From: Vicinamibacteria bacterium
Lineage (GTDB): Bacteria; Acidobacteriota; Vicinamibacteria; Vicinamibacterales; JAENWD01
Direction: 5' to 3'
DNA length: 64,000 nucleotides
Assembly (NCBI GenBank): GCA_963828745.1
Contig: CAWHFZ010000010.1
Span: 157,221 to 221,220, forward strand
The position numbers were made by a program, and so were the translations under genes. The notes below the pieces were generated by a model. It was not told the origin of the DNA. It worked only from the letters and a program-made list of their open reading frames with translations, and ran no database searches. Shown piece after piece: positions 4,514 to 31,416 of this stretch (position 1 is the first letter of the stretch; every line of letters starts with the position of its first letter).

Positions 4514-4622
4514 GCGGACCTGATGGTCCGCAGTTGACCATATGTAGGGCGGACCTTCAGGTCCGCCATTCGCCGAGACAGCGCGTGTTTGACCAGATGT
4601 AGGGTGGACCTTCAGGTCCGCC
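4514..4622. repeat. REP-like hairpin cluster (3 copies)
   Basis: GCGGACC-TGAT-GGTCCGC (4514-4531), TGTAGGGCGGACC-TTCA-GGTCCGCC (4543-4567) and TGTAGGGTGGACC-TTCA-GGTCCGCC (4599-4622). Confidence 0.8.
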
Positions 4623-13870: not shown

Positions 13871-15223
13871 ATGGACACGACATCGCGTCGCGATTTTCTG
13901 AAGACCACTGCGGCGGGACTCGGCGGCGCGGTGGTCGTCGTCGGCGGCGGCACGCGCCGCGGCCGAGCCGAAGACGGCGCCGCAGACGACTCCTGTTCAA
14001 GGCGCCAGCCATCGAGCACGTCCGCGTCGGCTTCGTCGGCGTGGGCGGCATGGGCACGAACCATCTCGACAACTATCTGGCGCTCGAAGGCGTCACCGTC
14101 GCCGCCGTCTGCGATATCGACCAGTCGCACGCCGAGCGTGCCCGCAAGAAGATCGTCGACGCCGGGCAGCCCGAGCCGAAGCTCTTCACGCGCGGCGAGC
14201 GCGACTTCGAGCGGATGTGCGGCGAGCAGGAACTGGATCTCGTGTTCAACGCCACGCCGTGGGAATGGCACGTGCCGGTGATGCTGGCAGCGCTGAAGGC
14301 GGGCAAGCACGCCGCGACGGAGGTGCCGGCCGCGTATCGCGTCGACGACTGCTGGGCGCTGGTCGAAGCGGCGGAGAAGTACAACAAGCACGCGGTGATG
14401 ATGGAGAACTGCTGCTACGACCGGCGCGAGATGCTGACGCTGATGCTGGTCCGGAAGGGGCATCTTCGGCGACCTGCTGCATGCCGAGTGCGGCTATCTC
14501 CACGATCTGCGGTCGATCAAGTTCTCGAAGGAAGGCGAAGGCCTGTGGCGCCGGGCGCACGCCGATCGCACGAAACGGCAATCTCTATCCGACGCACGGG
14601 CTCGGGCCGATCGCGCAGTGCCTTCGACATCAACCGCGGCAACCAGTTCGATTACCTGGTGTCGATGAGCAGTCCAGTCACGCGGCCTGAAGCTGTACGC
14701 GGAGGAGCATCTGCCCGCCGACGATCCGCGGCGCAAGGAGGTCTACAAGCTCGGCGACGTCAACGTGTCGCTGATCCGGACGGTCAAGGGACAGACGATC
14801 TACCTGGCGCACAACTGCGACGACCCGCGCCCGTACAGCCGGCTGCACAAGGTCCAGGGCACGCGTGGATTGATCGAGGGCTGGCCCGATCGCATCCACA
14901 TCGAGGGCCGCAGTCCGAACGACGAGTGGGAGACGCTCGACAAGTACTACGAAGAGTTCGAGCATCCGCTGTGGAAGTCGGAGCGCGTCAAGAAGGCGAC
15001 GCGCGGCCACGGCGGAATGGACTTCCTCGAGGACTTTCGGTTCATCGAGTGCCTGCGCACCGGCCAGCCGGCGGACATGAACGTCTACGACGCGGCGTCG
15101 CTCAGCGTCATCTGCGAGCTGACGGAGCGATCGGTCGCGGACGGCAGCCGTCCGCAGGACGTTCCCGACTTCACGCGCGGCAAGTGGAAGACGACCGAGC
15201 CGCTGGGGATTGTCGAATCCTGA
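13871..15223 (+). pseudogene. Tat-exported Gfo/Idh/MocA-family oxidoreductase (GH109-like), several frameshifts
   Basis: Tat signal MDTTSRRDFLKTTAAGLGGA. Rossmann part VGFVGVGGMGTNHLDNYLALEGVTVAAVCD.. (ORF 14041 frame). C-terminal part ..GTRGLIEGWPDRIHIEG..EHPLWK..HGGMDFLEDFRFIECLRTG (ORF 14765-15223). Confidence 0.7.
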
Positions 15224-15232
15224 GGAACCGCC

Positions 15233-15290
15233 GTAGGGCGGACCTTCAGGTCTCGCCGATGTAGGGCGGGGGCTTGAGCCCCGCCCTGCA
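15233..15290. repeat. REP-like hairpins (2 copies, different stems)
   Basis: GTAGGGCGGACC-TTCA-GGTCTCGCC and TGTAGGGCGGGGGC-TTGA-GCCCCGCCCTGCA. Confidence 0.75.
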
Positions 15291-15302
15291 CCGGATCTCC
15301 GT

Positions 15303-16010
15303 TCACCACACGCCAGGCAATACCCGCCACCGCACCGTCCGTTGATAGTCGACATACTCGTCGCCGAACGCCTCGACGAGCGATCGCTCCTCGAACGGAA
15401 TCGCCACGATCAAGTACGACCGAGCTCACGGCCGCGAAGACGAATCGCGTCCAGGTCATGTCCGGCACGGCGAAGACCATGAGCATCCATCCGAGATAGA
15501 TCGGATGGCGCACGAGGTGATACGGGCCGACGACCTTGAAATCGGTCATTCGATGCTCGTGCCGAGTCCCTGGCGGATGCCGGCGAGCTGCAGCCCGTCG
15601 ATCACTTGCGTCGCGCGCAGCCGTCAGCCAGACGCCGGCGAGAACGATCGTCCAGTGCGGAACGGCCGCTCCAGCCCCGATGGTCGTACAGGCGGCCAGG
15701 CAGCGGCTGCCAGCCCGCGATCAACGACGATCAGGAGCAGGCTCGACGATCCACACGTAGAGCTGAACGCTCGAGATGCGGCGGGCACCCGCGCGCGTCA
15801 GCCGGCGCTTGATCCCGGCGCGCGCGAACAGACTGTGGTGGAGCGCGAAGGCGCTGAAGAGAAGGACGTCGACGAGCGGGCGCCCACGCGGCGTTGGCAT
15901 CCGTCCGGCGCCGGCGCCCATGCCGAGATAGAACGCCGCCGAGCGCGATCGTCAGGCTGACCACGAACGCGGCGCCACCGAGCCAGACGATCGACGCGTG
16001 TGGCCGGACC
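15303..16010 (-). pseudogene. membrane methyltransferase family protein (ICMT/PEMT/NnrU-like), several frameshifts; 5' end uncertain
   Basis: Fragments LLFSAFALHHSLFARAGIKRRLT and GPYHLVRHPIYLGWMLMVFAVPDMTWTRFVFAA. After a 1-nt shift the tail reads ..LIVAIPFEERSLVEAFGDEYVDYQRTVRWRVLPGVW, with the stop at 15303. Confidence 0.6.
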
Positions 16011-16053
16011 CGGCGCCGAAAGGTCAGGCATCGGCCGGTATTATAGTGAGGCC

Positions 16054-17328
16054 ATGGCCGTCCCGCGGGTCGTGATCTCGGGCATCGGCGTCGTCTCGGC
16101 GTTCGGTGTCGGGCGAGAGCGGTTCTGGGACCACGTCAGCCGCGGCGTTACCGCCACCCGTGCCGTCACCGAGTTCGACGTCTCGACGTTCCCGTGCCAG
16201 GTCGCTGCGCCGGTACCGGCGGTGACTCGCGGCCGACGCACAAGTGCTCGACGGCGAAGACGATGCGGATCGCGAGTCGCGCGCCGATCCCAGGCGCTAT
16301 TCACGCGCGGCGCTCCTGGCCGTCATCGCGGCACGCGAGGCGTGGCACGACGCTCACCTTCGCATCGACGAGCCGAACGCCGGGGTCATCATCGGCAGCG
16401 GCGGCGGCGGCATCGACGTCGGCGAAGCGCAGTACCGCGACTTCTTCACCGCCGGCGGCAAGCACGTCACGCCATACGCCATCGCCGTCGGCATCGTCGG
16501 CATGATCTCGAGCGAGGTCTCGATTTCGCTCGGGCTGCGCGGCATCAGCCACGTGCTGTCGACCGGATGCACCAGTTCCACGGATGCGCTCGGCTATGCG
16601 GCGCGCCTGATTCGCGCCGGCGAGGCCGACGTGCTGCTCTCAGGCGGCGCCGACGGGTGCGTCACGCCGGGCATGATCTTCGGCTTTTCGCGGATGCGCG
16701 CGGTTTCGACGCGCTACAACGATCGGCCGTCCGAGGCCTCGCGTCCGTTCGATCGAGGACGCGACGGGTTCGTGCTCGGTGAGGGCGCGTGGATGTACGT
16801 CGTGGAGCGCGAGGATCGGGCGATCGCGCGCGGCGCACGCATCTACGCGACGGTCGAAGGCTACCAGTCCACGTGTGACGCCTATCACCGCGTGCAGATG
16901 GATCCCGATGGACGATGAGATTGTGGCCGCGATGCGTGGGGCGATCGATCGATCCGGGCGCTCACTTCGACGAGATCGGCTACGTCAACTACCACGGCAC
17001 CTCGACACAGCTCAACGACGCCATCGAGTCGCGCTGCACGCGTATGGTGTTCGGCGAGCACGCCGACCGCGTCCCCGGTTCGTCGACGAAGTCGATGATC
17101 GGTCACCCGCAGGGTGCCAGCGGCGCCGCCGGGATCGTCGCCACGGCGCTGGCGCTGCACCGCGGCTTCCTGCCGCCGACGGCCAACCTTACCGATCCCG
17201 ATCCGGCCTGCGACATGGACTTCATCCCGCGTATCGGACGGGCGCAACAGGTCGGCGCCGCGCTGTGCAACTGTCTCGGCTTCGGATCGAAGAACAGCGC
17301 CATTGTGCTTGGCGCGCAGGATGCCTGA
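16054..17328 (+). pseudogene. beta-ketoacyl-ACP synthase (FabF/KAS II-like), 2 frameshifts (~16235, ~16910)
   Basis: RVVISGIGVVSAFG. Active-site Cys in LSTGCTSSTDALGYA. His motifs YVNYHGTSTQLND and STKSMIGHPQGASG. The three frame segments abut in order. Confidence 0.8.
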
Positions 17329-18558
17329 CGACGTGCTGGTCGTCGGTGCGGGTCCGGCGGGATCCGTCGCCGCACTCGTGCTGGCACGCGCCGGCGTCAA
17401 GGTGACGCTGCTCGATCGCTCCGGATTCCCACGCGACAAACTCTGCGGCGATTCGATCAATCCTGGCGCAATGGGGCTCTCTCCGAGCGCACGGACTGGC
17501 GACGGCGATCGAGCACGTCGGCGTGCCAATACGCGGCATGCTCGTGACCGGCCCTGGTAATACCGAAGTGAACGGCAGATACGCAGACGGGATCTGCGGC
17601 CGCAGTATCCGGCGCCGCGGATCTCGATACGCTGCTGCTCGACGCTGCCATTCGTGCCGGCGCCCGATTCGAACCGAACGTGCGCGTGTCCGCGGCAGCG
17701 ACGACAGGCACAGGGCCCGCCAACGCCGTGAACGGCGTCGTCGTCAGCGCAGAAGGCGGCTCGCATGTCGAGCGTCACGCGCGGCTGGTGATCGCCGCCG
17801 ATGGCCGTCGATCGACCCTCGCGTTCGGGCTGGGGCTGGCGAGGCATCCGGCACGGCCGCGGCGCTGGGCGCTCGGCGCCTATTTCGAAGGTGTGATCGG
17901 CCTGGCGGAGCGGGGCGAGATGCACATCGGCAAAGGCCGCTACATAGGTGTGGCGCCGCTCCCTGGCGGCCTTGCCAACGCTGCGTCGTCGTCCCGGAGC
18001 TGGCGGCGAGGAGCTTCATGCACGCACCGGACGTGGCGCTCGAAGCCGCGATTGTGGCGGATGCGCGGCTTGCGCGTACGGTTCGAAAGAGCACGTCGCG
18101 TGACGGATGTGCAAGTGCTCGGTCCGCTTGCCGTCGACGCGGAGAGCGCTGGCGTTCCCGGCCTGTTGCTCGCTGGCGATGCGGCGGGGTTTATCGACCC
18201 GATGACCGGTGACGGGCTGCGGATTGCAATCAAAGGCGCGGAACTGGCCGCCGAAGCAGCCCTCGGGTATCTCCAGGGCCGGATCGGTCAGCCACACCTG
18301 TGGCTGCAGGGGAAGCGGGACACCGAGTTCGCCGGAAAGCTGCGCACGAACCGTTTGCTGCGCTCGCTGGTCGCCCGCCCGCTCGCGCTCAGCGCCGCCG
18401 CGGTCGGCGCCCGGATCGTGCCAGCCGCCGTCGAGCGGATCATCATGTACGCGGGCGATGTGGACGCGCCGGTGCGCGAGGACGTGGACGAAGGTAGGAC
18501 CGTAGGCCGGAGCTTTAGCTCCGGCGAGGACGTGGACGACCGTAGGCCGGAGCTTTAG
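17321..18558 (+). pseudogene. FAD-dependent oxidoreductase, geranylgeranyl-reductase family, at least 4 frameshifts
   Basis: DVLVVGAGPAGSVAALVLARAGVKVTLLDR (FAD fold), RLVIAADGRRS and LLLAGDAAGFIDPMTGDGLRIAIKG. The start overlaps the KAS stop by 8 nt. The last ~20 codons are encoded by REP copies. Confidence 0.7.
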
Positions 18559-18620
18559 CTCCGGCGATCGTGGCCCAAGCTAAAGCTTGGGCCTACGACA
18601 CTAGGCTTGGGCCTACGACG
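18501..18620. repeat. REP-like cluster (4 copies, two stem variants, both orientations)
   Basis: CGTAGGCCGGAGC-TTTA-GCTCCGGCG occurs twice (18501, 18541), each preceded by the duplicated GAGGACGTGGACGA. Also GGCCCAAGC-TAAA-GCTTGGGCCTAC (18572-18596) and a partial CTAGGCTTGGGCCTAC. Confidence 0.8.
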
Positions 18621-18630
18621 CCGTGAACGC

Positions 18631-18696
18631 GTGCACCTGTGGCACTCGTCGCACCTGTCGCACCTGTCGCACCCGCATCTTCACCTCTCGCACCGG
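18631..18696 (+). repeat. tandem 9-mer array (CGCACCTGT units)
   Basis: gtgcacctgtggcactcgtcgcacctgtcgcacctgtcgcacccgcatcttcacctctcgcacc. It ends 5 nt before the stop of the minus-strand esterase. Confidence 0.75.
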
Positions 18697-18700
18697 CCTC

Positions 18701-19522
18701 CTACCAGTTCGTCTCTGTCCTCTTCGGCAACAGCCATCGCAATGCGGGTTCGAAACGGCGCGCCCACGCCGCTTCGTTGTGCTGGCCGCCGCGTTCCTCG
18801 ACGTACCTGATCTGCCGTCGTGGATGGATCGCCTGACGCCGGAGCAGGCGGACCATCTCACGGACCTGGCGAACGTGGCCGCGTCCTTCGAGTGTGCCGG
18901 TATCGAGATACAGGCGAGCGTCCCATTGCCCGACTGCGCTCACGACGCCGAAGATCGCTCCGCGCGCGAACCACAGCGACGGGCTCATTGCACCCGCGAA
19001 ACCGAAGGTGTCGGGACGGCGGAGCAACGCGTACAGGCTGATCAGTCCGCCCATCGAGGAGCCCATGATCCCGGTCATCGCACGCTCGCGCTGGGTCCGG
19101 AACTCGGCGTCGATGCGCGGCTTCAACGTGTCGATCAGAAACGATACGTAGTCGTCGCCACGCCCGCCGCCGATGCGTTCGTCGCGGAACGGGCTGTATT
19201 CGTCGGCGCGAAGCTTGCCGCTGTTGGGGATGGCGACCACGATCGCCTCGAGACCCTCGCGCGATACGCGCTCCATCGTCTCGTCGACGAGCCATTCGCC
19301 CGCGAACGAGGTCGTGGGATCGAAGAGGTTCTGCCCGTCCTGCATGTAGAGCACGGGATAGTGGCGCCCGCTCGATCCATACGACGGGGGCAGGTAGACA
19401 AGCACGTCACGCTGGGTGCCGAGTTGCGGGCTCTCGACGCCCTCGAGCCGCCGTATGTTGCCGACGACATTCCCCTGCACCTCGCGTCCCGGCGCCCTCG
19501 TCGTACATCGCGTTGGTTCCAC
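18701..19522 (-). CDS. esterase family protein (esterase D / enterochelin-esterase-like alpha/beta hydrolase)
   Basis: 273 aa. Motifs VLVYLPPSY..HYPVLYMQDGQNLFD, DEYSPF and the nucleophile elbow GIMGSSMGGLISL. Confidence 0.8.
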   Translation of the reverse strand: MEPTRCTTRAPGREVQGNVVGNIRRLEGVESPQLGTQRDVLVYLPPSYGSSGRHYPVLYMQDGQNLFDPTTSFAGEWLVDETMERVSREGLEAIVVAIPNSGKLRADEYSPFRDERIGGGRGDDYVSFLIDTLKPRIDAEFRTQRERAMTGIMGSSMGGLISLYALLRRPDTFGFAGAMSPSLWFARGAIFGVVSAVGQWDARLYLDTGTLEGRGHVRQVREMVRLLRRQAIHPRRQIRYVEERGGQHNEAAWARRFEPALRWLLPKRTETNW

Positions 19523-19591
19523 AGTATCATTGACGTGGCCCGCCGCTGTTCGCGGGCGGTCGTGCTGCGGACGCGGCGAGGTCTTTCACTG

Positions 19592-20701
19592 ATGGCGCAT
19601 CGGTTCACCATCGGCGTCGAGGAAGAATTTCAGATTGTCGATCCCCAGACGTGGGAGCTCCGTTCGCACGTCTCGGAGCTGCTTGCGGCCGGCTCGCGGT
19701 CGCTCGGCGAGCAGATGAAGCGCGAGATGCACCAGTCGATCGTCGAGGTCGGCACGACGATCTGTGAGGACGTGCCGCGCCTGCATCACGAGATGTTGAA
19801 AATCCGGACCGAGCTGTGCGCGGCGGCGGATCGCGCCGGTCTGGCCGTGGCCGCGTCAGGCACGCATCCGTTCTCGAACTGGATCGACCAGGTCATCTCG
19901 CCGGGCGAGCGCTACGAGAACATCGTCGAGGAACTGCAGCAGCTGGCGCGGTCGCTGCTGATCTTCGGTCTGCACGTGCACGTCGCCGTCCCGGATCGCA
20001 CGACGGCTATCGACATCATGAACGCGGCGCGCTACTTCCTGCCGCATCTGCTCGCGCTGTCGACCAGCTCGCCGTTCTGGATGGGCCGCGACACCGGCCT
20101 GAAGTCGTATCGCACGACGATCTTCCGGCGCTTTCCACGCACCGGCGTGCCCGATCACTTCGGGTCGTGGAGCGAGTACGAGAACTACGTCAACCTGCTG
20201 ATCGATCTGCACTGCATCGACGACGGTAAGAAGATCTGGTGGGACATCCGTCCGCACCCGACATTCGGGACGCTGGAGTTCCGCGTGTGCGATGTCCCGA
20301 CCCGCGTCGAAGAAACGGTCGCGATCGCCGCGCTCGTGCAGGCGATCGTCGTCAAGCTGTACAAGCTGTATCGACAGAACATGGGGTTCCGCCTGTATCG
20401 GCGGGCGCTGATCGAGGAAAACAAGTGGCGGGCCGCGCGCTGGGGACTCGACGGGCAGCTGATCGACTTCGGCAAGAAGTCGGAAGTCCCGATGCGCGAT
20501 CTGGCGCTCGAACTCGTGTCGTTCGTCGACGACGTGGTCGACGAGCTCGGCAGTCGCGAGCACGTGAACTACGTCCACACCATTCTGAAGGACGGCACGA
20601 GTGCGGATCGGCAGTTGAAGGTGTATCGCGAGACCGGTGATCTGACGAGCGTCGTGCAGCACGTCGTGCACGAAACGCGTCCCGCGACGATGCGCGTCTA
20701 A
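19592..20701 (+). CDS. carboxylate-amine ligase, glutamate-cysteine ligase family 2 (YbdK/GCS2-like)
   Basis: The real start is the ATG at 19592 (MAHRFTIGVEEEFQIVD). The upstream 323 codons of ORF 18623-20701 lie antisense to the esterase. Also LHVHVAVPD and TLEFRVCD. Confidence 0.85.
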   Translation: MAHRFTIGVEEEFQIVDPQTWELRSHVSELLAAGSRSLGEQMKREMHQSIVEVGTTICEDVPRLHHEMLKIRTELCAAADRAGLAVAASGTHPFSNWIDQVISPGERYENIVEELQQLARSLLIFGLHVHVAVPDRTTAIDIMNAARYFLPHLLALSTSSPFWMGRDTGLKSYRTTIFRRFPRTGVPDHFGSWSEYENYVNLLIDLHCIDDGKKIWWDIRPHPTFGTLEFRVCDVPTRVEETVAIAALVQAIVVKLYKLYRQNMGFRLYRRALIEENKWRAARWGLDGQLIDFGKKSEVPMRDLALELVSFVDDVVDELGSREHVNYVHTILKDGTSADRQLKVYRETGDLTSVVQHVVHETRPATMRV

Positions 20702-20703
20702 AT

Positions 20704-20772
20704 GGGGTCGGGATAAATTTCAATTTTTGCCACGTCCTCGGTACGGCAAAAATTGAAATTTATCCCGACCCC
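20704..20772. repeat. perfect 28-bp inverted repeat with 13-nt loop, AT-rich core
   Basis: GGGGTCGGGATAAATTTCAATTTTTGCC (20704-20731), loop acgtcctcggtac, GGCAAAAATTGAAATTTATCCCGACCCC (20745-20772). It starts 2 nt after the GCS2 stop and ends 19 nt before the ATP-grasp ATG. Confidence 0.9.
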
Positions 20773-20791
20773 GAGATATCGAGCGGTATTT

Positions 20792-21702
20792 ATGGCCAAG
20801 AAAAAGACGGATGCGCCGATGATCGTCGGCCTGCTCTGCGGGCGCGAGTTTTCGTTTCCTCCGGCGTTCATCGCCGCGGTCAACGAGCTGGGGAAGCCGC
20901 ACGGCGTGACCGCCGAGATGGCGAAGCTCGGGGGCACGAAGATGGGCGAGCCCGCGCGCTACCGGGTAATCGTCGATCGCATTTCCCACGAGGTCGAGTA
21001 CTACCGCGCCTACCTGAAACACGCGGTGCTGCAAGGCACGTACGTCATCAACAACCCGTTCTGGTGGACCGCTGACGACAAGTTCTTCAACTACGCCGTC
21101 GCCAGCAGACTGGGCGTCGCGATCCCGAAAACGATCGTGCTGCCGCAGAAGGACTATCCCGCCGACGTCGACCTGACGCCGGAGTCGCTGCGCAATCTGG
21201 AGTATCCCGATCGACTGGGACGCGTTGCTCGACTACGTCGGCCGGCCCGCGATTCTGAAGCCGTTCTCCGGCGGCGGCTGGAAGCACGTCTACAAGGTGA
21301 ACGATCGTCACGAGCTCCTGGCCGCCTACGATCGCACAGCGCCGTACTGCATGACGCTGCAGGAATTCATCGACTTCGATCAGTACGTCCGCTGCTTCAC
21401 CTTCGGCAAGACCGACATCGTGCCCGTCCACTACGATCCGCGCGAGCGCCGATACATCGTCGATCACGCCTATCTCTCGTCCGAGCTCGGCTGAGCGCGT
21501 CGTCAAGGACGCGCAGACGATCAACCAGGCGCTCGGCTACGAGATGAACACGATCGAGTTCGCGGTGCAGGACGGCGTGCCGTACGCGATCGACTTCCTG
21601 AACCCGGCGCCCGATTTCGAGCGCGATCGGATCACGTCGCACTATTTCGGCATGGCCGTCGAGCGGATGGCGAAGCTGGTCATCGACCGTGCGACCTCCT
21701 GA
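20792..21702 (+). pseudogene. ATP-grasp family ligase (RimK/GshB-like), 2 frameshifts (~21207, ~21490)
   Basis: MAKKKTDAPMIVGLL.., then IDWDALLDYVGRPAILKPFSGGGWKHVYKV.., then ERVVKDAQTINQALGYEMNTIEFAVQDGVPYAIDFLNPAPD... Removing one C from the CCC run near 21205 restores LEYPIDWD. Confidence 0.75.
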
Positions 21703-21798
21703 CGACCTCACCAACCCCTGGCCGCGGTGGGAACAGATGGTCGGATTGGGCAAAGCGGCCGGCGTAATCGGGCAGCCGGCGTGAGGAAGTGGCGGCAA

Positions 21799-21836
21799 CG
21801 AAGGACGAAGGACGAGGGACGAAGGACGAAGGACGG
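21799..21836 (+). repeat. tandem heptamer array (GAAGGAC)n
   Basis: cgaaggacgaaggacgagggacgaaggacgaaggacgg. The same unit occurs at 47746-47776. Confidence 0.8.
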
Positions 21837-21847
21837 AAACGCGACAG

Positions 21848-23213
21848 ATGTCCACGGTTAGCGACGCAATCGAACACTGGCACGCCCTGTTGCGGCCGGA
21901 CGTCGAACTGACGGCGGATTTCGCGGCGCGCTTCACCGACGATCTTCGGGCCGAACGGCTGTTCTTCGGCGATCGGATCCATTGCCCGTTCCTGCGTCCG
22001 TTCTTCCTCGACGACGACCAGGTGTCACTGGTACGTCGCGTCAGCGAGTCGATCGCGCGAATGGGCGAGACGGTGGCGCAGGCGGCGCTCGAGCGTCGCG
22101 ACATTCTCGATGCGGTTGCGCTCACCGACGCCGAGCGCGCACTGGTCGCCATCGATCCCGGCTACTCGACTGCGAGCACCGCGTCCCGTCTCGACTCGTT
22201 CATCCTTCCCGATTCGCTGCAGTTCGCCGAATACAACGCCGAGTCACCTGCCGGCCTTGGCTACACCGAGAAGCTGACCGGCTGCTTCGAGCACCTCGAG
22301 CTGCTCGGACGGTTCCGCGAGCGGTTCGAGGCGTCGGCGTTCGCGCTGATGGAGCCGATGCTGCACGCACTGCTGGCCAGCTACCGCGAGTGGGGAGGGA
22401 CTGCCAATCCGCCGACAATCGCGATCGTCGACTGGCGCGAGGTGCCCACCTGGGCCGAATTCCTGATCCTGCAGGCGAAGTTCGAATCGCTCGGCGTGCC
22501 GACGATCGTCTGCACGCCGCCGCAGCTCGAGTTCGATGGGCGTACGCTTCGCGTGGACGGCCGCGTCATCGACCTGGTCTACCGCCGCGTGCTCATCAAC
22601 GACATCCTCGAGAAGCCGGCCGACTGCCGGGCGCTCACGGATGCCTATGCCGCCCGCGCCGTGTGCGTCGCCAACACCTTCCGCTGCAAGATTCCGCACA
22701 AGAAGGCGTTCTTCGCGCTGCTGACGGATGAACGATTTTCGGCCCTGTTCACCGCCGGACGAGCGCGCGATTGCCGCGCGGCACATCCCGTGGACGCGCC
22801 TGGTCAAGGAAGGGACGACGACGCGAAACGGTCAGCAGCTGGATCTCATCCCACATATCAGGAAGGAACGGCGCGATCTGGTGCTGAAGCCGAACGACGA
22901 TTACGGCGGCCACGGCGTGACGCTGGGATGGGAGGCGGACGACAACGCCTGGGACGAGACCCTGACGAAGGCGCTGAGCGGGGAAGACGGTGCGTGGGTG
23001 GTGCAGGAGAAGATTCACGTCCGCCGCGAGCCGTTCCCGCGCTTCACGCCTGGGCAAGGCGCTCACGTCGGCGACATGCTGGTGGACTGCGCGCCGTATC
23101 TGTTTCGCGGGAAGCTGGCGGGCTTCCTGACGCGACTCAGCGCGTCGGGCCTGGCGAATGTGACATCGGGCGGCGGCCAGGTGCCGTCATTCGTCATCCG
23201 CGCACGCACGTGA
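21848..23213 (+). pseudogene. GspS-like / circularly permuted ATP-grasp amidoligase, 1 frameshift (~22745)
   Basis: LQFAEYNAESPAGLGY, IAIVDWREVPTWAEF and CKIPHKKAFFALLTDE, then (ORF 22728 frame) HIPWTRLV..LVLKPNDDYGGHGVTLGWE..WVVQEKIHV..ANVTSGGGQVPSFV. Confidence 0.65.
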
Positions 23214-23228
23214 GAGGCCGACGTCGCG

Positions 23229-24357
23229 ATGCCTTTTGACTGCCAGTTCCGATCGACGCACGGCCAGGACGCGTGCGTCGACCGGTGTCCTACCACCGGC
23301 GCCGATCCGACCTTCGTGTTCGCTCGGATCGAGCAGGCCGCCGACCTGCCGCCGATCGATCCGCACACGATCGACGTCGCGGTCCTCGACATGCATCACG
23401 GATGGCCGAATCTCGGGCATGACGCCATCGGCTACGGCATCCAGAACATCGTCTGCGACATCACTCCCGCGCTCAGGGCCGCGGGACTTCGCGTGCGCGT
23501 GTTGTCCTATGACGTCCGGCGCGGACACCAGATTCCAGAGCCGCCCGGCGATCGCCATCGCATCTACATCGGCACCGGCGGGCCTGGGCATCTCGATCCG
23601 CGCCTGAACGATGGCGTCTCCCCAGGATCGCAGGGCATCAAAGAGGATCCGGCTGGGAGCCGAGGCTGTTCGCCCTCTTCGACGACATTCGGTCGGACGG
23701 CCAGGCCGCGCTGCTCGCCGTCTGTCACACTTTCGGCGTGATGTGTCGCTGGCTGGGTATTGCCGACGTCGTGCTGAGAGGAGACGAGAAAGGCGGCAAG
23801 AGCAGCGGGATCGCCGATAACCTGTTAACCGACGCCGCGCTCGATCACCCATGGTTCAGCGGCCTTGGCCGAGAACTCCCCGGCCGTCGTCGATTGAAAA
23901 TCCTGGACAACCGGCTGTACGACCTTATCCCTCGCGGACCCATCACACCGCCCGTCGTTGCGCTGTCGTGCGAAGCGACAGGTATCGGCGGTGGACCTGG
24001 CGACGCGTTGACGGCGATCGAAGTCGCCCGCGATCCTGAAGGACAGTCATGCCGAGCATCCTCGGCGTCAACCATCATCCGGAGATCGTCAATCGTCCAC
24101 GCCAGCTCACCATCCTGCGCAAGCGGATGGAGCGTGGCGCAGTGACGCCGGAGTGGTACGCGGAGCGGGCCAAGGCGCTCACCGACATCATCGGCGACGA
24201 GCGCGGCGATCAGTTGCTGCATCTCACGTCGAGCTACATGTTCCTGGGACCGCTGCGGTTCCACTTGTACAGGCAGATTCGACTGCGCGCGGAACGCCTC
24301 GGCGTGGCCGTCGACGTGCACGAGCATCGCACGCCGATTCTCGCCAGCTACGCGTAG
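23229..24357 (+). pseudogene. class I glutamine amidotransferase-fold protein (GATase1 / gamma-glutamyl-hydrolase-like), 2 frameshifts (~23650, ~24047)
   Basis: VAVLDMHHGWPNLGHD. Nucleophile elbow ALLAVCHTFGV. His-Glu candidates in ILGVNHHPEIV. The three frame segments abut in order. Confidence 0.65.
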
Positions 24358-24371
24358 CGAGAAATCGGAAT

Positions 24372-24444
24372 GGCGGACCTGAAGGTCCGCCCTACATGTG
24401 TAATCCGATCACATCTGTGGCGGCGGGGCTTTAGCCCGCCGTAG
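24372..24444. repeat. REP-like hairpins (2 copies)
   Basis: GGCGGACC-TGAA-GGTCCGCCCTACA (inverted orientation) and GGCGGGGC-TTTA-GCCCGCCGTAG. Confidence 0.8.
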
Positions 24445-24473
24445 TAATCTGATCCCCCTGTAGAACGGGGCCC

Positions 24474-24887
24474 GTGGCCCCGGCGACTGACGTGCCCGTC
24501 ATTCCCGTTCAACTCGGAACCAGACGCCTTCCGAAAGAGGGCCTTCGCCTGGGTACAGTGCGCCACCTGCCCAGGGGTGTCCGAAAGGATCGCTACGGCG
24601 CCGAAAACTGGTTCGACGTCTGGCTTCCGAATCTCGCGCCCAGCGCCGCGCTCGTGAAAACGGCGAGATCCGCTGTTGGTGACGACAAGGCGTGGAAGCG
24701 GTTCGCGGGGAGATATCGGGCGGAGATGCGTCGCCCCGAAGCGGCGCGCGTGCTGGAGCTCGTCGCCGCCTTGTCGCGCGTGACCAACGTCTCGGTCGGA
24801 TGCTACTGCGAGAATCCGCGCTACTGCCATCGAGCGATCCTGGTCGAGCTGCTCGCCGAGCGCGGAGCCACAGTTCGGAAGAGGTGA
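24474..24887 (+). CDS. DUF488-family protein
   Basis: 137 aa. LPRGVRKDRY, WLPNLAPS and the C-terminal VGCYCENPRYCHRAILVELL motif typical of DUF488. Confidence 0.7.
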   Translation: MAPATDVPVIPVQLGTRRLPKEGLRLGTVRHLPRGVRKDRYGAENWFDVWLPNLAPSAALVKTARSAVGDDKAWKRFAGRYRAEMRRPEAARVLELVAALSRVTNVSVGCYCENPRYCHRAILVELLAERGATVRKR

Positions 24888-24891
24888 GGGA

Positions 24892-25005
24892 CAGGCGGCA
24901 GACTTCAGACTTCAGGCGGCAGGCTTCAGGCTCCAGGCTCCAGGCTTCAGGCTCCAGGCTCCAGGCTTCAGGCTCCAGGCTCCGGCTCGGGCTCCGGGCT
25001 CCGCG
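24892..25005 (+). repeat. tandem heptamer array (CAGGCTY/CAGACTT units)
   Basis: caggcggcagacttcagacttcaggcggcaggcttcaggctccaggctccaggcttcaggctccaggctccaggcttcaggctccaggctccggctcgggctccgggctcc. Confidence 0.8.
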
Positions 25006-25015
25006 CTGATCGTGA

Positions 25016-25089
25016 TGCACCCAGGCACCTGTGCACTACGCACCCGTCGCACCTAACGCACCTGTCGCACCTGTCGCACCTGTCGCACC
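25016..25089 (+). repeat. tandem 9-mer array (CGCACCTGT units)
   Basis: ..gcacctgtgcactacgcacccgtcgcacctaacgcacctgtcgcacctgtcgcacctgtcgcacc. It ends 9 nt before the stop of the minus-strand esterase at 25098. Confidence 0.8.
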
Positions 25090-25097
25090 GACATTCC

Positions 25098-25823
25098 CTA
25101 AACGCCCCTCAAATACCCCCGCATCATGTTTTTCCAATACGGCCAGTCGTGTCCGCCTGCGTCGCCCCAGTCATCGAGATGGTGGCTGATGCCCTTGTAG
25201 CTGAGAGCGCGGGAGAGATCGTAGGAGTGCGAGGGGTGCTCCCACGGACCGTGGCCCGTGGCGATGTGGATATTGGCGCTGCTGATTTGTCCGATCAGGC
25301 CGGGATCCGTCATGCCACCGATGTAGTCCATCGGATTGTTGAAATAGAAGTTGTCGTCGTACTGGCCGTCCATGAACCGGCGCAGGTCGTAGAGTCCCGA
25401 CATCGCGAAGCACCCGCGGACGGCGTCCGGGTGTTTGAACAGCGTATTCGCCGCGTGATATGCCCCGAGCGACGCACCCATCGTCGCGATCGCCACCAGG
25501 CCGCCGCAGTGGTGGTGGATGAACGGGATCACTTCCCATCGGATGTACTCGTCCCATTGGCGCTGCATCCAGCTCCGGTGAAAGGGATGCGCGCCCTTGT
25601 TGTAAAAGCTTTGATCGCCGTTCGATCCGACGGTGAAGAGCTTGATGCGGCCGCCGTCGATGAACTCGGCCAGCGCGTCGACCATGCCCTGGCCTTCCAG
25701 TTCCCACTCGTCGCCACCGCTCGTCGGAAACGCCAGGAGCGGCGTGCCCCAGTGTCCGTAGGCGACGACGCCCATGTCGCGTCCGAGGCGACCCGTATAC
25801 CAGCGCTGATACTCTCTTTGCAC
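25098..25823 (-). CDS. esterase family protein (alpha/beta hydrolase)
   Basis: 241 aa. Motifs GVVAYGHWGTPLLAFPTSGG, IATMGASLGAYHA (nucleophile elbow) and GGHDWPYW. Confidence 0.75.
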   Translation of the reverse strand: MQREYQRWYTGRLGRDMGVVAYGHWGTPLLAFPTSGGDEWELEGQGMVDALAEFIDGGRIKLFTVGSNGDQSFYNKGAHPFHRSWMQRQWDEYIRWEVIPFIHHHCGGLVAIATMGASLGAYHAANTLFKHPDAVRGCFAMSGLYDLRRFMDGQYDDNFYFNNPMDYIGGMTDPGLIGQISSANIHIATGHGPWEHPSHSYDLSRALSYKGISHHLDDWGDAGGHDWPYWKNMMRGYLRGV

Positions 25824-25905
25824 GTCCGCGATTCTATCGCGGTCGTGCTGGCGGGAATGGCGCCAGGTGTTGTTGTATGCTTCCGGTTCTCATTCGCCGC
25901 TCACA

Positions 25906-26068
25906 TGTAGGGCCCGGGCTTCAGCCCCGCCACCCGGCGGACCTGAAGGTCCGCCCTACATATTCGGCTCACGTGTAGGGCTCGGGCGGGGACATGTAGG
26001 GCTAGGCGGGGACATGTAGGGCGGGGCTTCAGCCTCGCCAGGACGGCGGACCTCAGGTCCGCCCTACA
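25906..26068. repeat. REP-like cluster (4 full and 2 partial copies, alternating orientation)
   Basis: TGTAGGGCCCGGGC-TTCA-GCCCCGCC, GGCGGACC-TGAA-GGTCCGCCCTACA, two bare TGTAGGGCT heads, TGTAGGGCGGGGC-TTCA-GCCTCGCC and GGCGGACC-TCA-GGTCCGCCCTACA. Confidence 0.85.
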
Positions 26069-26087
26069 CAGTCGGCGGGGAGGAGTA

Positions 26088-27293
26088 GTGTCGGAACGCG
26101 AGCCGATGACGATCCTGTGCGTTGCCACGTACGAAAAGGGTCAGCAGTTCATTCGTGAATGCAAGCGTCAGGGCTGCACCGTGCTGCTCCTGACGGTGGA
26201 TACCCTGAAGGACGCGGACTGGCCGCGCGAGGCCATCGACGAGACCTTCTACATCCCTCGTGACATCGCCCGCGACAGCTTGCTGAAGGGTGTCAGCCAC
26301 ATCGCGCGCACGCGCGTCCTCGATCGGATCGTCGCGCTCGATGACTTCGACGTCGAAACGGCCGCCCTCCTGCGAGAGCATCTGCGTGTCCCGGGGATGG
26401 GCGAAACCACCGCGCGCTACTTCCGCGACAAGCTCGCGATGCGCGTCCGCGCCAGGAACCAGGGCATCCTCGTGCCCGATTTCGTCGCCGTCGTGAACGA
26501 CGATGCGATCAACCGGTTCGCCGACAACGTCGGACTGCCGTGGATGCTGAAGCCGAGGTCCAACGCCGCGGCGATTGGCATCCACCGGATCGAGAAGCAC
26601 GACGATCTCTGGCCGACGATCGACGGGCTTGGCGATCAGCGCTCGTTCTACGTCCTCGAGCAGTTCGTCGCCGGCGACGTCTTTCACGTCGATTCGCTGG
26701 TCTGGGAGCGCGAGCCGATCTTCCATACGGCGCACCAGTACGGCATGCCGCCGTTCAGCGTCGCTCATCAAGGCGGCATCTTCACGACGCGCACAGTACC
26801 GAAGGCGACGTCAGCCTGGAAGCCGCTCGCCGCCATCAATCGCGAGGTGTTGACGACGTTGAATCTCGCGCGCGGCGTCGCCCACACGGAGTTCATCCGC
26901 AGCGCGGCTGACGGCCGTTGGTACTTCCTCGAGACGTCGGCCCGCGTCGGCGGCGCCTACATCGTGGACGTCGTCGAGGCCTCGACCGGCATCAACCTGT
27001 GGCGCGAGTGGGCAAAGATCGAGATCGCCGGGGAGGATCACCCGTATCATCTGCCCAACGCCCGCGAGCAGTATGCGGGTCTTGCGCTCACGCTGTCGCG
27101 GCAGGAACGGCCCGATACCTCCGCCTACACGGATCCGGAGATCGTGCTGCGCGTGAACAAGAAGCATCATGCGGGCCTGATCGTCCAGTCCCAGGACCCG
27201 AAGCGCATCGATCAGTTGCTCGACAACTACACCGGCCGGTTCCTGCAGGATTTCTACGCTTACGCTCCCGCACCGGAGCGTCCGACGTCCTGA
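26088..27293 (+). CDS. ATP-grasp domain protein (carboxylate-amine ligase type)
   Basis: 401 aa. GTG start preceded by GGGGAGGAG. Motifs WMLKPRSNAAAIGIHRI, FYVLEQFVAGDVFHVDS and HTEFIRSAADGRWYFLETSARVGGAYI. Confidence 0.8.
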   Translation: MSEREPMTILCVATYEKGQQFIRECKRQGCTVLLLTVDTLKDADWPREAIDETFYIPRDIARDSLLKGVSHIARTRVLDRIVALDDFDVETAALLREHLRVPGMGETTARYFRDKLAMRVRARNQGILVPDFVAVVNDDAINRFADNVGLPWMLKPRSNAAAIGIHRIEKHDDLWPTIDGLGDQRSFYVLEQFVAGDVFHVDSLVWEREPIFHTAHQYGMPPFSVAHQGGIFTTRTVPKATSAWKPLAAINREVLTTLNLARGVAHTEFIRSAADGRWYFLETSARVGGAYIVDVVEASTGINLWREWAKIEIAGEDHPYHLPNAREQYAGLALTLSRQERPDTSAYTDPEIVLRVNKKHHAGLIVQSQDPKRIDQLLDNYTGRFLQDFYAYAPAPERPTS

Positions 27294-27294
27294 C

Positions 27295-27819
27295 TTGCGT
27301 CTTCAGGCATGGCCCGTCGTCGTACTGGTCATCGGCGCGGTCTTCCTGCTGATGCTGGTGGAACTGCAGGTCGCCGTCTTCAATGACCGGACGCTGCGGG
27401 CTCGAGGCGCGGTCGAACCGCCGGACGACGTGTATCGGATCATGCGGTTCGCGTATCCGGGCGCCTTCCTCCTGATCGGACTCGACGCGCTGCGTCACGA
27501 GTGGCTCTCTCGTGACGTCGTGCTGCTGGGCCTCGTGCTCTTCGGCTGGGCGAAGGCCCTGAAGTTCTGGGTGATTCGCACGCTCGGCAGCCGATGGTCG
27601 TTTCGCGTGATGGTGGTGCCCGGCCTGCCGCTGATCACCGGCGGACCGTACCGCTGGGTCCGCCATCCCAACTACGTCGCAGTGCTCGGCGAGATCGCCG
27701 CGATCGCGGTGACGCTGTCGGCGCCCGTGTCCGGCGTGATTGCCGTGCTCGGATTCGCCTGGCTGCTCCGCAAGCGCATCCTCGTGGAAGAACGAGCGCT
27801 GGGCCTCCGGGAAAGATAG
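27295..27819 (+). CDS. isoprenylcysteine carboxyl methyltransferase (ICMT)-family membrane protein
   Basis: 174 aa with multiple TM segments. GGPYRWVRHPNYVAVLGEIAA and the ..LLRKRILVEERAL C-terminus. Starts 1 nt after the ATP-grasp stop. Confidence 0.8.
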   Translation: MRLQAWPVVVLVIGAVFLLMLVELQVAVFNDRTLRARGAVEPPDDVYRIMRFAYPGAFLLIGLDALRHEWLSRDVVLLGLVLFGWAKALKFWVIRTLGSRWSFRVMVVPGLPLITGGPYRWVRHPNYVAVLGEIAAIAVTLSAPVSGVIAVLGFAWLLRKRILVEERALGLRER

Positions 27820-27966
27820 CGATCGAGTTCTCGAATTCTCGATTTCTGTATTTGGTCCCTCGCTTCGGCCCACCGACATGCGACGCGCTCGCAGGCCGAA
27901 AAGCCACCGCCGCCGCTGCGGCGTCCTAAGCATTACCCGCTGCTATACTGGCGGAGTCGGTCACTC

Positions 27967-30568
27967 ATGCCTGCGCTTTGCCGGCTGTTGCTCGCGAGCG
28001 GGCGGCAGCAGGTCTTACCACCGGCGGCGGTCGTCCCGACCGTGCTTGCGCTGGGGTTGGCGCTGGCGTCCCCCACGTCCGGGCAGGTACGCCCGACCGA
28101 CGCTCCGCAAGTTCTCCCGCAGGAAAGCGAACGGCCTCCGAGCCCTGCACAGCTGAAGTACGACGCGGTGCGGGCGCTCCGCGACGGTCGCTACAGCGAA
28201 GCGCTCTCGCTGGCGGCGACGTTGCCGGCCGATACAGAGGTCTTGATCGTCCGTGGTCGCGCGCTCGCCGCGATCGGACGCTACGACGACGCGCTCGCGG
28301 CCTTTCAGCCGGTCGCGCAGCGCGAGCCTTCAGGCGAGGCAGCATTCGAACTCGGGCGCGTCTATTTGATTCGTGGCCGGACGGCGGACGCGACACGCGT
28401 GCTCGAACGAGTCATCGCGGCCGGCAGCCGCAGCGATGTCGGCGAGACGATCGGCCGGGCTGCGCGGGCAGCGCAGCTCCTCGCCCGCTACGAGCAGGCG
28501 AACACCCTGTTCCGGGATGCCGCGGCACTCGTCGGTGATGATCCGCAGCTGCAGGTCGCGTGGGGCGAGCTGTTTCTCGAGAAGCAGAATCGTCCGGAGG
28601 CCGTCCGATCCTTCCGCGCCGCGCTGCAAGGCGATCGGCGGAGTGCCGCCGCGTATGCCGGCCTCGCGCGCGCGTTCGCCGACGAAAATGCTGCGGTCGC
28701 CAAAGAGCTGGCCGGGCGCGCGCTTGGCGTCAATCCGTCGTTCGTGCCTGCCCATCTGGTGCTCGCCGACCAGGCGCTCGACGAAGATCGCCGCGCCGAT
28801 GCCAATGACGCCATTACGCAGGCACTGAACGTCAACCCGCAGAGCCTCGAGGCCCTCTCGCGCCAGGCGGCGATCGCCATGCTGGACGATCGCGAATCGG
28901 ACTTCGAGACGCTGGTCGCCCGAGTCCTGGCGATCAATCCGAAGTTCAGCGAGGTGTATCGAATCGCCGGGGCCCAGGCAGCACGGCACTACCGTTTCGA
29001 GCGCGCCGTCGAGCTGACGAAGAAGGCGCTGGCGATCGATCCGCAGAACTCGCGAGCCTCCGCCGACCTCGGCACGCACCTGCTCCGAACCGGCGACGAA
29101 GGCGCGGCGCGCACGGCCCTCGACAAAGCCTTCAAGGCCGATCCCTACGACGTCGTCGCCTACAACCTCCTCGGTCTGCTCGACAGCCTCGAGTCGTTCT
29201 CGACCGTCCAGGATGGCATCCTGACGTTCCGACTGCACCCGGACGAGGCGCCAGTTCTCCGGGAACATGCGCTGCCGCTGGCACGCGATGCGCTGCGGAC
29301 GCTGTCCGAACGTTACAACTTCACGCCGACCGGCCCGATTCTGATCGAGATCTTTCCGCGGCATGATGACTTCGCCGTGCGCAACGTCGGGCTGCCCGGC
29401 ATGATTGGCGCGCTCGGGGCATGCTTCGGCAAGGTCGTCACGCTCGACTCGCCTCGCGCGCGACCGCCTGGTACGTTCAGCTGGCAAGCGACCATGTACC
29501 ACGAGCTGGCGCACGTAGTCACCCTGCAGATGTCTGCCAACCGCATTCCGCGATGGCTGACGGAAGGCATCTCGGTCTACGAGGAGCAGCACGCGCGTCC
29601 CGAGTGGGGCCGCGACATGGACCTCGAGTTCGCCGACGCGCTCGAGCGCGGCACCGTGATCAGCCTGCCGGATCTCAATGCCGGCTTCATGGATCCGACG
29701 ACGATCTCGATGGCCTATTACGAGGCGTCGCTCCTGGTCGAATTTCTCGTCGAGGCTCACGGCCACGGTGCCCTCGAGTCGCTGGTGCGCAGCCTTCGCC
29801 GATGGCGGCGACACCGACGCAACGCTGAAGAAGACGCTGAGCACCTCTCTCCCCGAACTGCAGCCGCAGTTCACCAGTTGGCTGAACGCGCGCTTCGATC
29901 CCATTCTCAAGGCGCGGCGCGCGCCGCAGGATGTGGTGATCACGTCGCGGACGCCACGCCAGACGCTCGAGGAGCTCGCGACGGCACACCCCGATTACTT
30001 CGACCTTCTCGTGCGTCTCGGCGAGCTCCGCGCGCAGGCGGGTGACACGGCAGGCGCTTACAGCGCGTGGCAGCGCGCCGCTGCACTGGTTCCAGCGGCA
30101 ACGGGCGAGGACGGTCCGCGCGCGCGGATCGCCAAGCTGGCGATGGAGCAGGGCGACGCGGCGCGCGCGATCGAGGCGCTGGAAGGTACGCTCCAGCGGG
30201 AAGGCGCCAACGTCGAGGCGGCGCGCCAGCTGGCCATGCTGCTCGATCGTGCCGAGCAGCCGGTCCGCGCGGCAGCGGCGTGGGCGCGCGTCGCCGAGCT
30301 CGATCCGTTCGATGCCAATGCGTCCGCCGTGCTCGGACGTCAGGCCTTGAGCCACAGCGATCCCGAACTCGCGGCCCGCTGGTTCCGTGCGGCGCTCGCC
30401 GCCGGCCCGGCCGATCGGGCCGCGGCTCACTGCGATCTCGCCGAAAGTTACCTTGGCGCCAGCCAGCCCGTGCTGGCCAAGCGGCAGGTGCTCGCCGCGC
30501 TCGAGAACGCCCCGATGTACGCCCGGGCGCAGGATCTGCTGCTCGCGATCGTGGACGGGGTTCGCTGA
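27967..30568 (+). pseudogene. secreted TPR-repeat protein with peptidase-MA-like zincin domain (HELAH), 1 frameshift (~29795)
   Basis: Signal peptide, TPR-like repeats, then TFSWQATMYHELAHVVTLQ..WLTEGISVYEE. The C-terminal TPR part continues in the ORF 29678-30568 frame. Removing one base near 29795 gives LVRSFADGGDTDATLKK. Confidence 0.7.
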
Positions 30569-31387: not shown

Positions 31388-31416
31388 AGAAACGTTCGCA
31401 ATCACGAGGAGATCGA

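Follow-up and report, generated by a model that had tools for sequence, protein, structure and literature searches.

We analysed a 64,000-nucleotide stretch of contig CAWHFZ010000010.1 from a Vicinamibacteria bacterium (hereafter the window), in which four consecutive genes, named here g1, g2, g3, and g4, occupy positions 19592 to 24357 of the + strand. The genes encode three distinct ATP-dependent carboxylate-amine ligases of the GCS2, ATP-grasp, and circularly permuted (CP) ATP-grasp types, or four ligases when a RizA-like gene downstream is counted. The ligase genes sit beside the gene of a predicted GATase1-fold enzyme with a Cys-His-Glu triad and the genes of two alpha/beta serine hydrolases, EstA and EstB (Table 1). 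An earlier note on this DNA, made from the sequence letters, had proposed these enzyme classes for the four genes. All four were found at the noted positions on one strand, and every motif quoted in the note was present, including LAVCHTFG and NHHPE in g4. Profile searches and structure predictions supported the classes, namely a GCS2 ligase, an ATP-grasp, a circularly permuted ATP-grasp, and a GATase1 fold with its triad. The limits that the note had set for the cluster were too narrow, as the system extended past them to the two alpha/beta hydrolases and the RizA-like L-amino-acid ligase.

Table 1. Genes and intergenic elements of the ligase locus and its surroundings, in window coordinates.
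Feature	Position	Strand	Description
g1	19592-20701	+	YbdK/GCS2-family carboxylate-amine ligase (predicted), 369 aa, intact
g2	20792-21784	+	predicted ATP-grasp ligase, distantly RimK/LysX/Ddl-like, 329 aa once three one-base assembly insertions are removed
g3	21848-23213	+	predicted circularly permuted ATP-grasp type 2 (CP_ATPgrasp_2), 454 aa once a single one-base assembly insertion is removed
g4	23229-24357	+	predicted divergent class-I glutamine-amidotransferase/peptidase-C26-fold protein, 375 aa after correction of two assembly indels
EstA	18701-19522	-	alpha/beta serine hydrolase, Pfam Esterase PF00756, GSSMG motif; divergent from g1
EstB	25098-25823	-	second alpha/beta serine hydrolase, GASLG motif; Pfam Esterase E 1.2e-9
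Fourth ligase	26088-27293	+	L-amino-acid-ligase-type (RizA-like) ATP-grasp, 401 aa
DUF488 protein	24474-24887	+	Pfam DUF488-N3a E 4.3e-40
Inverted repeat	20704-20772		perfect 28-nt arms, 13-nt loop, AT-rich, between g1 and g2
GAAGGAC heptamer run	21796-21840		g2-g3 spacer; simple repeat, outside the system

As sequenced, the cluster contained six frameshifting indels, three in g2 (~21204-21209, ~21491, and ~21698-21702), one in g3 (~22752-22754), and two in g4 (a T missing after 23650 and two surplus bases at 24047-24048). Frameshifts in three of the four genes, and with them possible decay of the cluster, had been pointed out before; the frameshifts were confirmed and extended to six indels, among them a third one in g2 that had not been seen before. 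Each of the six was without a counterpart in contigs from one to four independent soil or rhizosphere metagenomes. These contigs were ~99% identical to the window, with 10 mismatches over 1705 bases in one piece. At 21204, 21491, 21698, and 22754 they were one base shorter than the window and at 24047 two bases shorter, and after 23650 they had one T more. Three of the indels, those at 22754, 23650, and 24047, were missing in four of four metagenome runs. A false TGA at 21700-21702 was the product of the third g2 indel, and the true end of g2 is at 21784, as in all homologues. The corrected frames of g2, g3, and g4 (lengths in Table 1) had zero internal stops, and the repaired proteins were 92.7%, 94.7%, and 98.9% identical to the intact database proteins P0242, P0001, and P0121, respectively. 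These three genes were read through their frameshifts before searching; Pfam searches with the raw open reading frame fragments gave almost nothing.

In two closely related contigs (L001 and L002), all genes were intact and in the order of the window. Their g3 was 94% identical as a protein, and their DNA was ~91% identical. The genes of a further relative (L085) were also all intact and in the same order. When L001 was aligned to the window, dozens of single-base indels were observed across 14-31 kb, mostly as insertions in the window. Against this 91%-identical relative, many single-base insertions in the interval 14157-31381 broke the genes for a ketoacyl synthase, a flavin adenine dinucleotide (FAD) oxidoreductase, EstA, and a TPR peptidase, and one burst comprised 16 indels in 600 bp (15419-15994). 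We presume that any frameshift elsewhere in the window is an assembly error. The six breaks in g2, g3, and g4 are assembly errors and not decay, because they were missing from independent contigs and the same type of error litters the neighbouring genes. The error pattern fits an unpolished (uncorrected) long-read assembly, and the reading of the cluster as decayed was therefore set aside.

A few read-length metatranscriptome contigs on g2 and g4 carried the corrected bases, which is weak evidence of expression. The nearest named genomes in the species-genome scan were Vicinamibacteria metagenome-assembled genomes. Near-identical copies were present in many soil and rhizosphere metagenomes. 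We regard the cluster as intact, probably co-transcribed, and derived from a Vicinamibacteria (Acidobacteriota) genome.

Family assignment of the encoded proteins

g1 matched the Pfam family GCS2 (PF04107) with an E-value of 2.9e-63 (214 bits, cut-off 21) and the NCBIfam model NF010039, 'carboxylate-amine ligase', with 535.7 bits (cut-off 371). The YbdK entries 1tt4 and 1r8g in the PDB were matched at E ~1e-50. By these matches, g1 is predicted to be a clear YbdK/GCS2 carboxylate-amine ligase. Among the NCBIfam ligase models it passed the generic 'carboxylate-amine ligase' model only, and it stayed below the cut-off of every 'glutamate--cysteine ligase' model (best score 400.7 against 409). 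Enzymes of the GCS2 family form gamma-glutamyl-type bonds, and genuine gamma-Glu-Cys ligases within the family include haloarchaeal GshA and mycobacterial EgtA.

For g2, a RimK/GshB-like ATP-grasp of ~300 residues had been proposed in the earlier note. Its ATP-grasp character was retained, with a corrected length of 329 residues, and the GshB likeness was lost, as no match to the glutathione synthase models (including TIGR01380) was found in the NCBIfam search. The RimK family model TIGR00768 (rimK_fam) gave an E-value of 3.4e-9, yet the score of 36.5 bits was far below the cut-off of 143.4. Scores against the Pfam ATP-grasp models were under the gathering thresholds, and a profile search of PDB sequences gave a marginal match to the Ddl entry 3r23 (E 3.7e-4). 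In Foldseek, the structure model of g2, with a predicted local distance difference test (pLDDT) score of 64, matched Ddl with an E-value of 1.6e-9, and ArgX, RimK, LysX, and MdnB were close behind, all at ~1e-9. Because of this pLDDT value the model supports a superfamily assignment only, and g2 is treated here as a predicted ATP-grasp at superfamily level. The g2 homologues ended in an invariant Trp-rich tail, NPWPRWEQM.GLG, which is hidden in the window (~21700-21784) by the false stop at 21702. This tail may serve to dock g2 to a partner.

g3 had been described as either GspS-like or circularly permuted. The window protein and its 94%-identical relative scored 19-21 bits against PF14403 (CP_ATPgrasp_2), for which the gathering score is 32. 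Of 24 g3 homologues, 23 matched PF14403 with E-values of 0.001 or less, the best being 5e-11, and many g3 homologues carry a precomputed match to it. The homologues numbered at least 7579 and included the intact P0001, which is 94% identical. Judged by these family matches, g3 probably belongs with CP_ATPgrasp_2, and the circularly permuted half of the description is the favoured one. For the GspS half, no match to the GSP_synth pre-ATP-grasp was found in the Pfam search. The g3 profile gave a weak match (E 0.11) to the PDB entry 3n6x, deposited as 'putative glutathionylspermidine synthase', and the sole glutathione-synthase signal was an NCBIfam score of 13.6 bits against a cut-off of 299.

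No Pfam match was found for the g4 protein of the window, for a 98%-identical relative, or for ten divergent family members; GATase (PF00117) and Peptidase_C26 (PF07722) were specifically without a sequence match to g4, and the NCBIfam search also gave no match. When 1.84 billion representative proteins were searched with a g4 profile, only 279 relatives were returned. The family is therefore compact, and HMMER does not bridge it to the canonical amidotransferases. The profile link to a canonical neighbouring GATase also failed in hhalign (probability 0.4%). The AlphaFold2 model of g4 had a pLDDT of 87.6 and a predicted template modelling (TM) score of 0.91. Its best Foldseek match was Arabidopsis gamma-glutamyl peptidase 1 (GGP1), with an E-value of 8e-11 and a target-normalised TM-score of 0.63. 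The next matches were the GMP synthase GATase, SpuA, PuuD, MetA-type acyltransferases, and gamma-glutamyl hydrolase (GGH). Nearly all of the 44 PDB matches at E up to 1e-3 had the GATase1 fold, and the GATase domains of GMP synthase, PabA, PurQ, and PhzE were among the strong ones.

The triad residues Cys166, His283, and Glu285 were invariant in 30 homologues. In the AlphaFold2 model, Cys166 is placed at a strand-helix elbow (strand 161-165, helix 167-176), and a helical extension of ~90 residues is formed at the C-terminus. His283 and Glu285 lie in NHHPE, the HPE of which aligned with the FHPE motif of GMP synthase in a profile search of the PDB that gave marginal matches only. The model and the conserved residues together point to a GATase1 fold with a Cys-His-Glu triad, and g4 defines a compact family of this fold that has neither a Pfam nor an NCBIfam model. 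Residues 1-24 (23229-23300) contained a near-invariant PFDC-x10-C-x3-CP pattern with Cys5, Cys16, and Cys20, often accompanied by His11, which has no counterpart in canonical GATase1 proteins. From its sequence, this motif looks like a small metal-binding or redox site.

Conservation and surroundings of the cluster

In a scan of one genome per species, at least 590 species had a g3 relative, and the best 80 were almost all Acidobacteriota. The cluster proteins were placed in the best loci by tblastn, and the counts given here refer to 43 acidobacterial species loci with g3 at least 54% identical, each count being out of those loci that had enough flanking sequence. g2 was directly upstream of g3 in 40 of 40 loci, and a GCS2 gene stood beside the g2-g3 pair in 35 of 37. 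EstB was the most consistent partner after g1-g2-g3 (34 of 39 loci). EstA was near the cluster in 14 of 36 loci, and the 401-residue ligase was present in 13 of 37, usually together with both EstA and EstB. Where g3 was 55-63% identical between lineages, g1 and g2 showed ~75-79% identity. The slot just after g3 contained g4 in 7 of 40 loci, an M29-like metallopeptidase in 28, and an M24 peptidase in one. One of these three occupied the slot in 36 of 40 loci, and two of them were never present in one locus.

The genes form a functional unit. Its conserved core consists of g2-g3, GCS2, and EstB, to which an interchangeable hydrolase is added. The g1-g4 set is the Vicinamibacteria version of this unit and is conserved in only one Vicinamibacteria lineage. 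The four genes are thus not themselves the conserved unit: g4 accompanied g3 in 7 of 40 loci, and M29 took its place in 28. The four-gene version was kept down to ~70% g4 identity (L085). In a variant (L003 and L017), g2-g3-g4 and EstB were kept and GCS2 was gone, with a PGM1-like ATP-grasp instead. The M29-like protein of the g4 slot (L007, L011, L013, L029, and others) had ~341-358 residues and a start of the form ...PGARNA(I/V)..CL.I.P.ERV, and it matched the C-terminal half of the Pfam M29 model only (E 1e-13).

More distant arrangements were also observed. At nine Pyrinomonadaceae loci (L053, L055, L057-L060, L078, L081, and L082), g3, a 201-residue protein, and GCS2 followed in this order, and a canonical Pfam GATase/Peptidase_C26 gene lay downstream of GCS2 on the opposite strand, directly adjacent in some of them. 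The conserved 201-residue protein between g3 and GCS2 had no Pfam match, and in three of the nine loci g2 was ~5 kb upstream on the opposite strand. In L084, a 46%-identical g4 adjoined a 47%-identical g2. By this pair, a 304-residue protein (L084 2691-3605, - strand) showed a sub-threshold match to Peptidase_S51 (cyanophycinase/dipeptidase E family).

Among the flanking genes, EstA carried one assembly indel near 19488-19490, which was not present in contigs of metagenome runs X3 and X6. Its intact homologue in L001 matched Pfam Esterase with an E-value of 2.2e-36, and its relatives in the PDB were IroE-like and ferulic-acid esterases. The fourth ligase, 1.7 kb downstream of the four-gene cluster, matched PDB 4wd3, 'L-amino acid ligase', at E 1.2e-22 and gave weak matches to Pfam ATP-grasp_4 and ATPgrasp_N. 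The DUF488 gene was found in one of 39 species loci and is probably a lineage-specific neighbour outside the system. Further downstream (27295-31400, and 13183-19143 in L085), synteny was conserved for an ICMT-family methyltransferase, a TPR/Peptidase_MA protein, DUF4159, and a MoxR-DUF58-BatA (Bat-type) operon. Only close Vicinamibacteria relatives share this block, which is probably unrelated to the ligase system. No nonribosomal peptide synthetase (NRPS) and no transporter were found within ~8 kb of the cluster. No small open reading frame was shared by more than five loci, and the shared ones were overlapping-frame artefacts, which gave no precursor peptide. On all three points the earlier note was borne out.

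The g1-g2 inverted repeat was unique within the window and AT-rich amid a 65% GC genome. Among the relatives, only the two closest, L001 and L002, had the hairpin, which was gone from L004 onwards; it may be a small inserted palindromic element. A riboswitch or attenuator was rejected for this hairpin, which is not conserved past the closest relatives and whose Rfam matches, to miRNA hairpins, were far sub-threshold and spurious. The Rfam search gave no riboswitch at the cluster. L001, a close relative, lacked the GAAGGAC run in the g2-g3 spacer. Contig depth in the metagenomes exceeded 1000, which makes the motif a very common one in the soil communities sampled. A repetitive extragenic palindromic (REP)-like element, GGCGGACCTGAAGGTCCGCCCTACA, occurred six times between genes, at 4543, 4598, 13488, 24372, 25936, and 35232, where none is expected by chance, and its depth in contigs from soil metagenomes was raised. 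The interval 25890-26080 was dense in related GGCGGGG...CATGTAGGG repeats.

Proposed function and competing explanations

We read the cluster, at a probability of about 55%, as a lineage variant of a CP_ATPgrasp_2 ligase-peptidase system that synthesises a small peptide, possibly a gamma-glutamyl one, and also turns it over. In the cytoplasm, the ligases would work one after another by way of acyl-phosphate intermediates and would assemble a short non-ribosomal peptide or amide. This product would probably hold a gamma-glutamyl-type bond made by the GCS2 enzyme, because GCS2 enzymes make such bonds and the closest structures to g4 cleave gamma-glutamyl amides. g4 would be a gamma-glutamyl-type peptidase that trims or recycles the product, an M29 aminopeptidase would do the same job in most sister lineages, and EstA and EstB would contribute further turnover. 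The ratio of ligases to hydrolases is near one-to-one, which suggests that the product is made and degraded dynamically, as an osmolyte, reserve, or stress metabolite would be, and is not a secreted antibiotic.

Several points weigh against this proposal. The ligase substrates and the product are inferred. g2 and g3 scored under the curated thresholds of their nearest families, so their chemistry is predicted at superfamily level only, and the g2 structure model is of low confidence (pLDDT 64). For g4, GMP-synthase GATase subunits were the second group of Foldseek matches, and GATase1 subunits also serve ATP-grasp enzymes as ammonia donors, as in CarA/CarB. That M29 stands in for g4 in the same slot is circumstantial evidence for equivalent function, and not all M29-fold proteins are peptidases, NicX being an example. 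The evidence from RNA consists of a few read-length contigs, for which DNA carry-over is possible.

The role of g4 decides between the peptidase proposal and an amidotransferase explanation, in which g4 would be a glutamine amidotransferase subunit that hydrolyses glutamine and passes the ammonia to the GCS2 enzyme or an ATP-grasp. That ligase would use it to amidate an acyl-phosphate and yield an amide-capped product, similar to carbamoyl-phosphate synthetase (CarA/CarB) or the AsnO step in the formation of N-acetylglutaminylglutamine amide. Of the class-I amidotransferase features, g4 keeps the HPE motif and the full Cys-His-Glu triad, the amidotransferase domains listed above are among its strong structural matches, additional elements at its two termini could provide docking for a partner, and its start codon is 15 bp past the g3 stop. 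However, the top structural matches of g4 were stand-alone gamma-glutamyl peptidases, and in most lineages the slot holds an M29 or M24 metallopeptidase, which is unable to supply ammonia. Because these enzymes fill the g4 slot in most lineages, the ligases evidently work without an ammonia donor. We therefore consider the amidotransferase explanation unlikely. The earlier note had left hydrolase and amidotransferase side by side for g4; the hydrolase is the better supported of the two, by the structural matches and the slot sharing with M29. We favour g4 as a peptidase rather than an ammonia donor mainly because g4 and the metallo-aminopeptidase occupy one slot in a mutually exclusive manner, and its closest structures are stand-alone gamma-glutamyl peptidases. 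The canonical GATase/Peptidase_C26 genes of the nine Pyrinomonadaceae loci and the g4-g2 pair of L084 also speak for a peptidase.

The ligases themselves could also be directed at proteins. RimK adds glutamates to ribosomal protein S6, and g2 and/or g3 could add amino acids to the carboxylate of a target protein in the same style, with the peptidases removing the tag; peptide tags were reportedly raised as one possibility in a 2009 amidoligase survey. The pairing of ligases with hydrolases resembles such tag and de-tag logic, the nearest named family of g2 is RimK, with RimK, ArgX, and LysX among its fold matches, and g1 and g2 are unusually conserved (~75-79% against 55-63% for g3). No conserved small open reading frame and no obvious target gene were found in the neighbourhood, g2 was far under the RimK-family cut-off, and an enzyme of the L-amino-acid-ligase type together with a GCS2 enzyme points to free small-molecule substrates, which makes protein tagging quite improbable. 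A glutathione-like low-molecular-weight thiol, which had been put forward for this cluster before, would need GCS2 to make gamma-Glu-Cys, a GshB-like g2, a GspS-like g3 for amine coupling, and g4 as the matching hydrolase. The GCS2 family does include gamma-Glu-Cys ligases, the gamma-glutamyl peptidases to which g4 is similar include plant GGP1, whose substrates are glutathione conjugates, and a rhodanese gene was nearby in 5 of 38 species loci. Nevertheless, g2 and g3 did not match the GshB and GspS models, and the only glutathione-synthase score, that of g3, was far short of its cut-off. g1 met the generic ligase model alone and was under every glutamate--cysteine ligase cut-off, GCS2 was missing in the variants that keep g2-g3-g4 (L003 and L017), and nothing beyond the occasional rhodanese neighbour tied the cluster to cysteine. 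The thiol proposal thus gained no specific support, and we hold it to be very unlikely. The chance that these are decaying pseudogenes without current function is minute: six frameshifts in three of four genes as sequenced would suit it, but every indel was lacking in independent near-identical contigs, the same error type runs across neighbouring genes, and the proteins were otherwise 93-99% identical to intact homologues.

The ligase-peptidase proposal can be carried further, into a rather speculative form that we would regard as improbable. The invariant g2-g3 pair, assisted by further ligases (GCS2 or PGM1-like, and RizA-like) and by peptidases that can replace one another (g4, M29, C26, and alpha/beta hydrolases), could build and mobilise a new non-ribosomal peptide or poly(amino acid) of Acidobacteria, such as a cyanophycin-like nitrogen/carbon reserve or a desiccation osmolyte, and g4 could found a new family of gamma-glutamyl-type peptidases with a Cys-His-Glu triad. 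Three or four amide ligases with two or three hydrolases, widely conserved, imply a novel metabolite or modification that is important to its hosts. Acidobacteria are among the most abundant soil phyla, and the best matches of g3 are overwhelmingly from soil Acidobacteriota, which are abundant but little studied. The cluster is a well-defined, widespread, and intact target for finding such an acidobacterial metabolite.

Comparison with known systems

The closest known counterpart is a predicted one. Iyer, Abhiman, Burroughs, and Aravind (Mol Biosyst 2009) reportedly predicted, by comparative genomics, a CP_ATPgrasp_2 gene-neighbourhood system. The PF14403 prototype is RoseRS_2616 of Roseiflexus, accompanied by a GCS2-like COOH-NH2 ligase, an alpha/beta-hydrolase peptidase, an amidohydrolase, and a metallopeptidase, with small peptides as the predicted products. 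Like that system, the present cluster combines a predicted CP ATP-grasp with a neighbouring GCS2 ligase, with alpha/beta hydrolases, and with an enzyme of the peptidase or amidohydrolase type. It differs in the amidohydrolase, which is predicted to be of the GATase1 fold (class I) and has no Pfam model, whereas the 2009 description reportedly has a GAT-II-like enzyme and an M20 peptidase; the sister lineages of the cluster use an M29 peptidase. It also has an obligatory and highly conserved second ATP-grasp, g2, and a frequent companion in a linked RizA-like ligase. In literature searches we found no experimental study of the CP_ATPgrasp_2 ligase-peptidase family and no paper characterising a mixed amidoligase neighbourhood of this kind, as the earlier note had expected.

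The chemistry of glutathione, gamma-Glu-Cys, and ergothioneine (GshA/GshB, EgtA with EgtC, and GspS) shares with the cluster a GCS2 ligase, further ATP-dependent ligases, and a gamma-glutamyl-type hydrolase. In the cluster, g2 and g3 fail the GshB and GspS models, GCS2 is dispensable in some variants, and a link to cysteine is lacking. EgtC is a class-II (N-terminal nucleophile, Ntn) amidohydrolase and not of the GATase1 fold. The osmolyte N-acetylglutaminylglutamine amide (NAGGN), reportedly described by Sagot et al. in 2010, is said to be made by the Ngg ligase and the AsnO amidotransferase, with a linked peptidase. There too, an ATP-grasp-type dipeptide ligase, an enzyme of the glutamine-amidotransferase type, and a peptidase are clustered, and an intracellular stress peptide is produced with neither NRPS nor exporter. 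AsnO is a class II enzyme and Ngg has a GNAT domain, so the analogy is one of design only and not of homology.

For g4, the C26 gamma-glutamyl peptidases (Arabidopsis GGP1, E. coli PuuD, Pseudomonas SpuA, and gamma-glutamyl hydrolase) are the best structural matches and have the same Cys-His-Glu triad. g4 differs from them in being only 12-15% identical, in having no Pfam GATase/C26 match, and in its extra N-terminal Cys motif and C-terminal helical extension. Cyanophycin synthetase and cyanophycinase, together with RimK, offer a further parallel, in which ATP-grasp ligases are paired with dedicated peptidases; a RimK-like ancestry of g2 is detectable, and cyanophycinase (S51) is also of GATase1-like fold. 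Unlike cyanophycin synthetase, the cluster has no Mur-ligase domain, and g2 is far under the RimK cut-off. By analogy, the cluster resembles the cyanophycin synthetase/cyanophycinase pair in its design logic rather than by homology.

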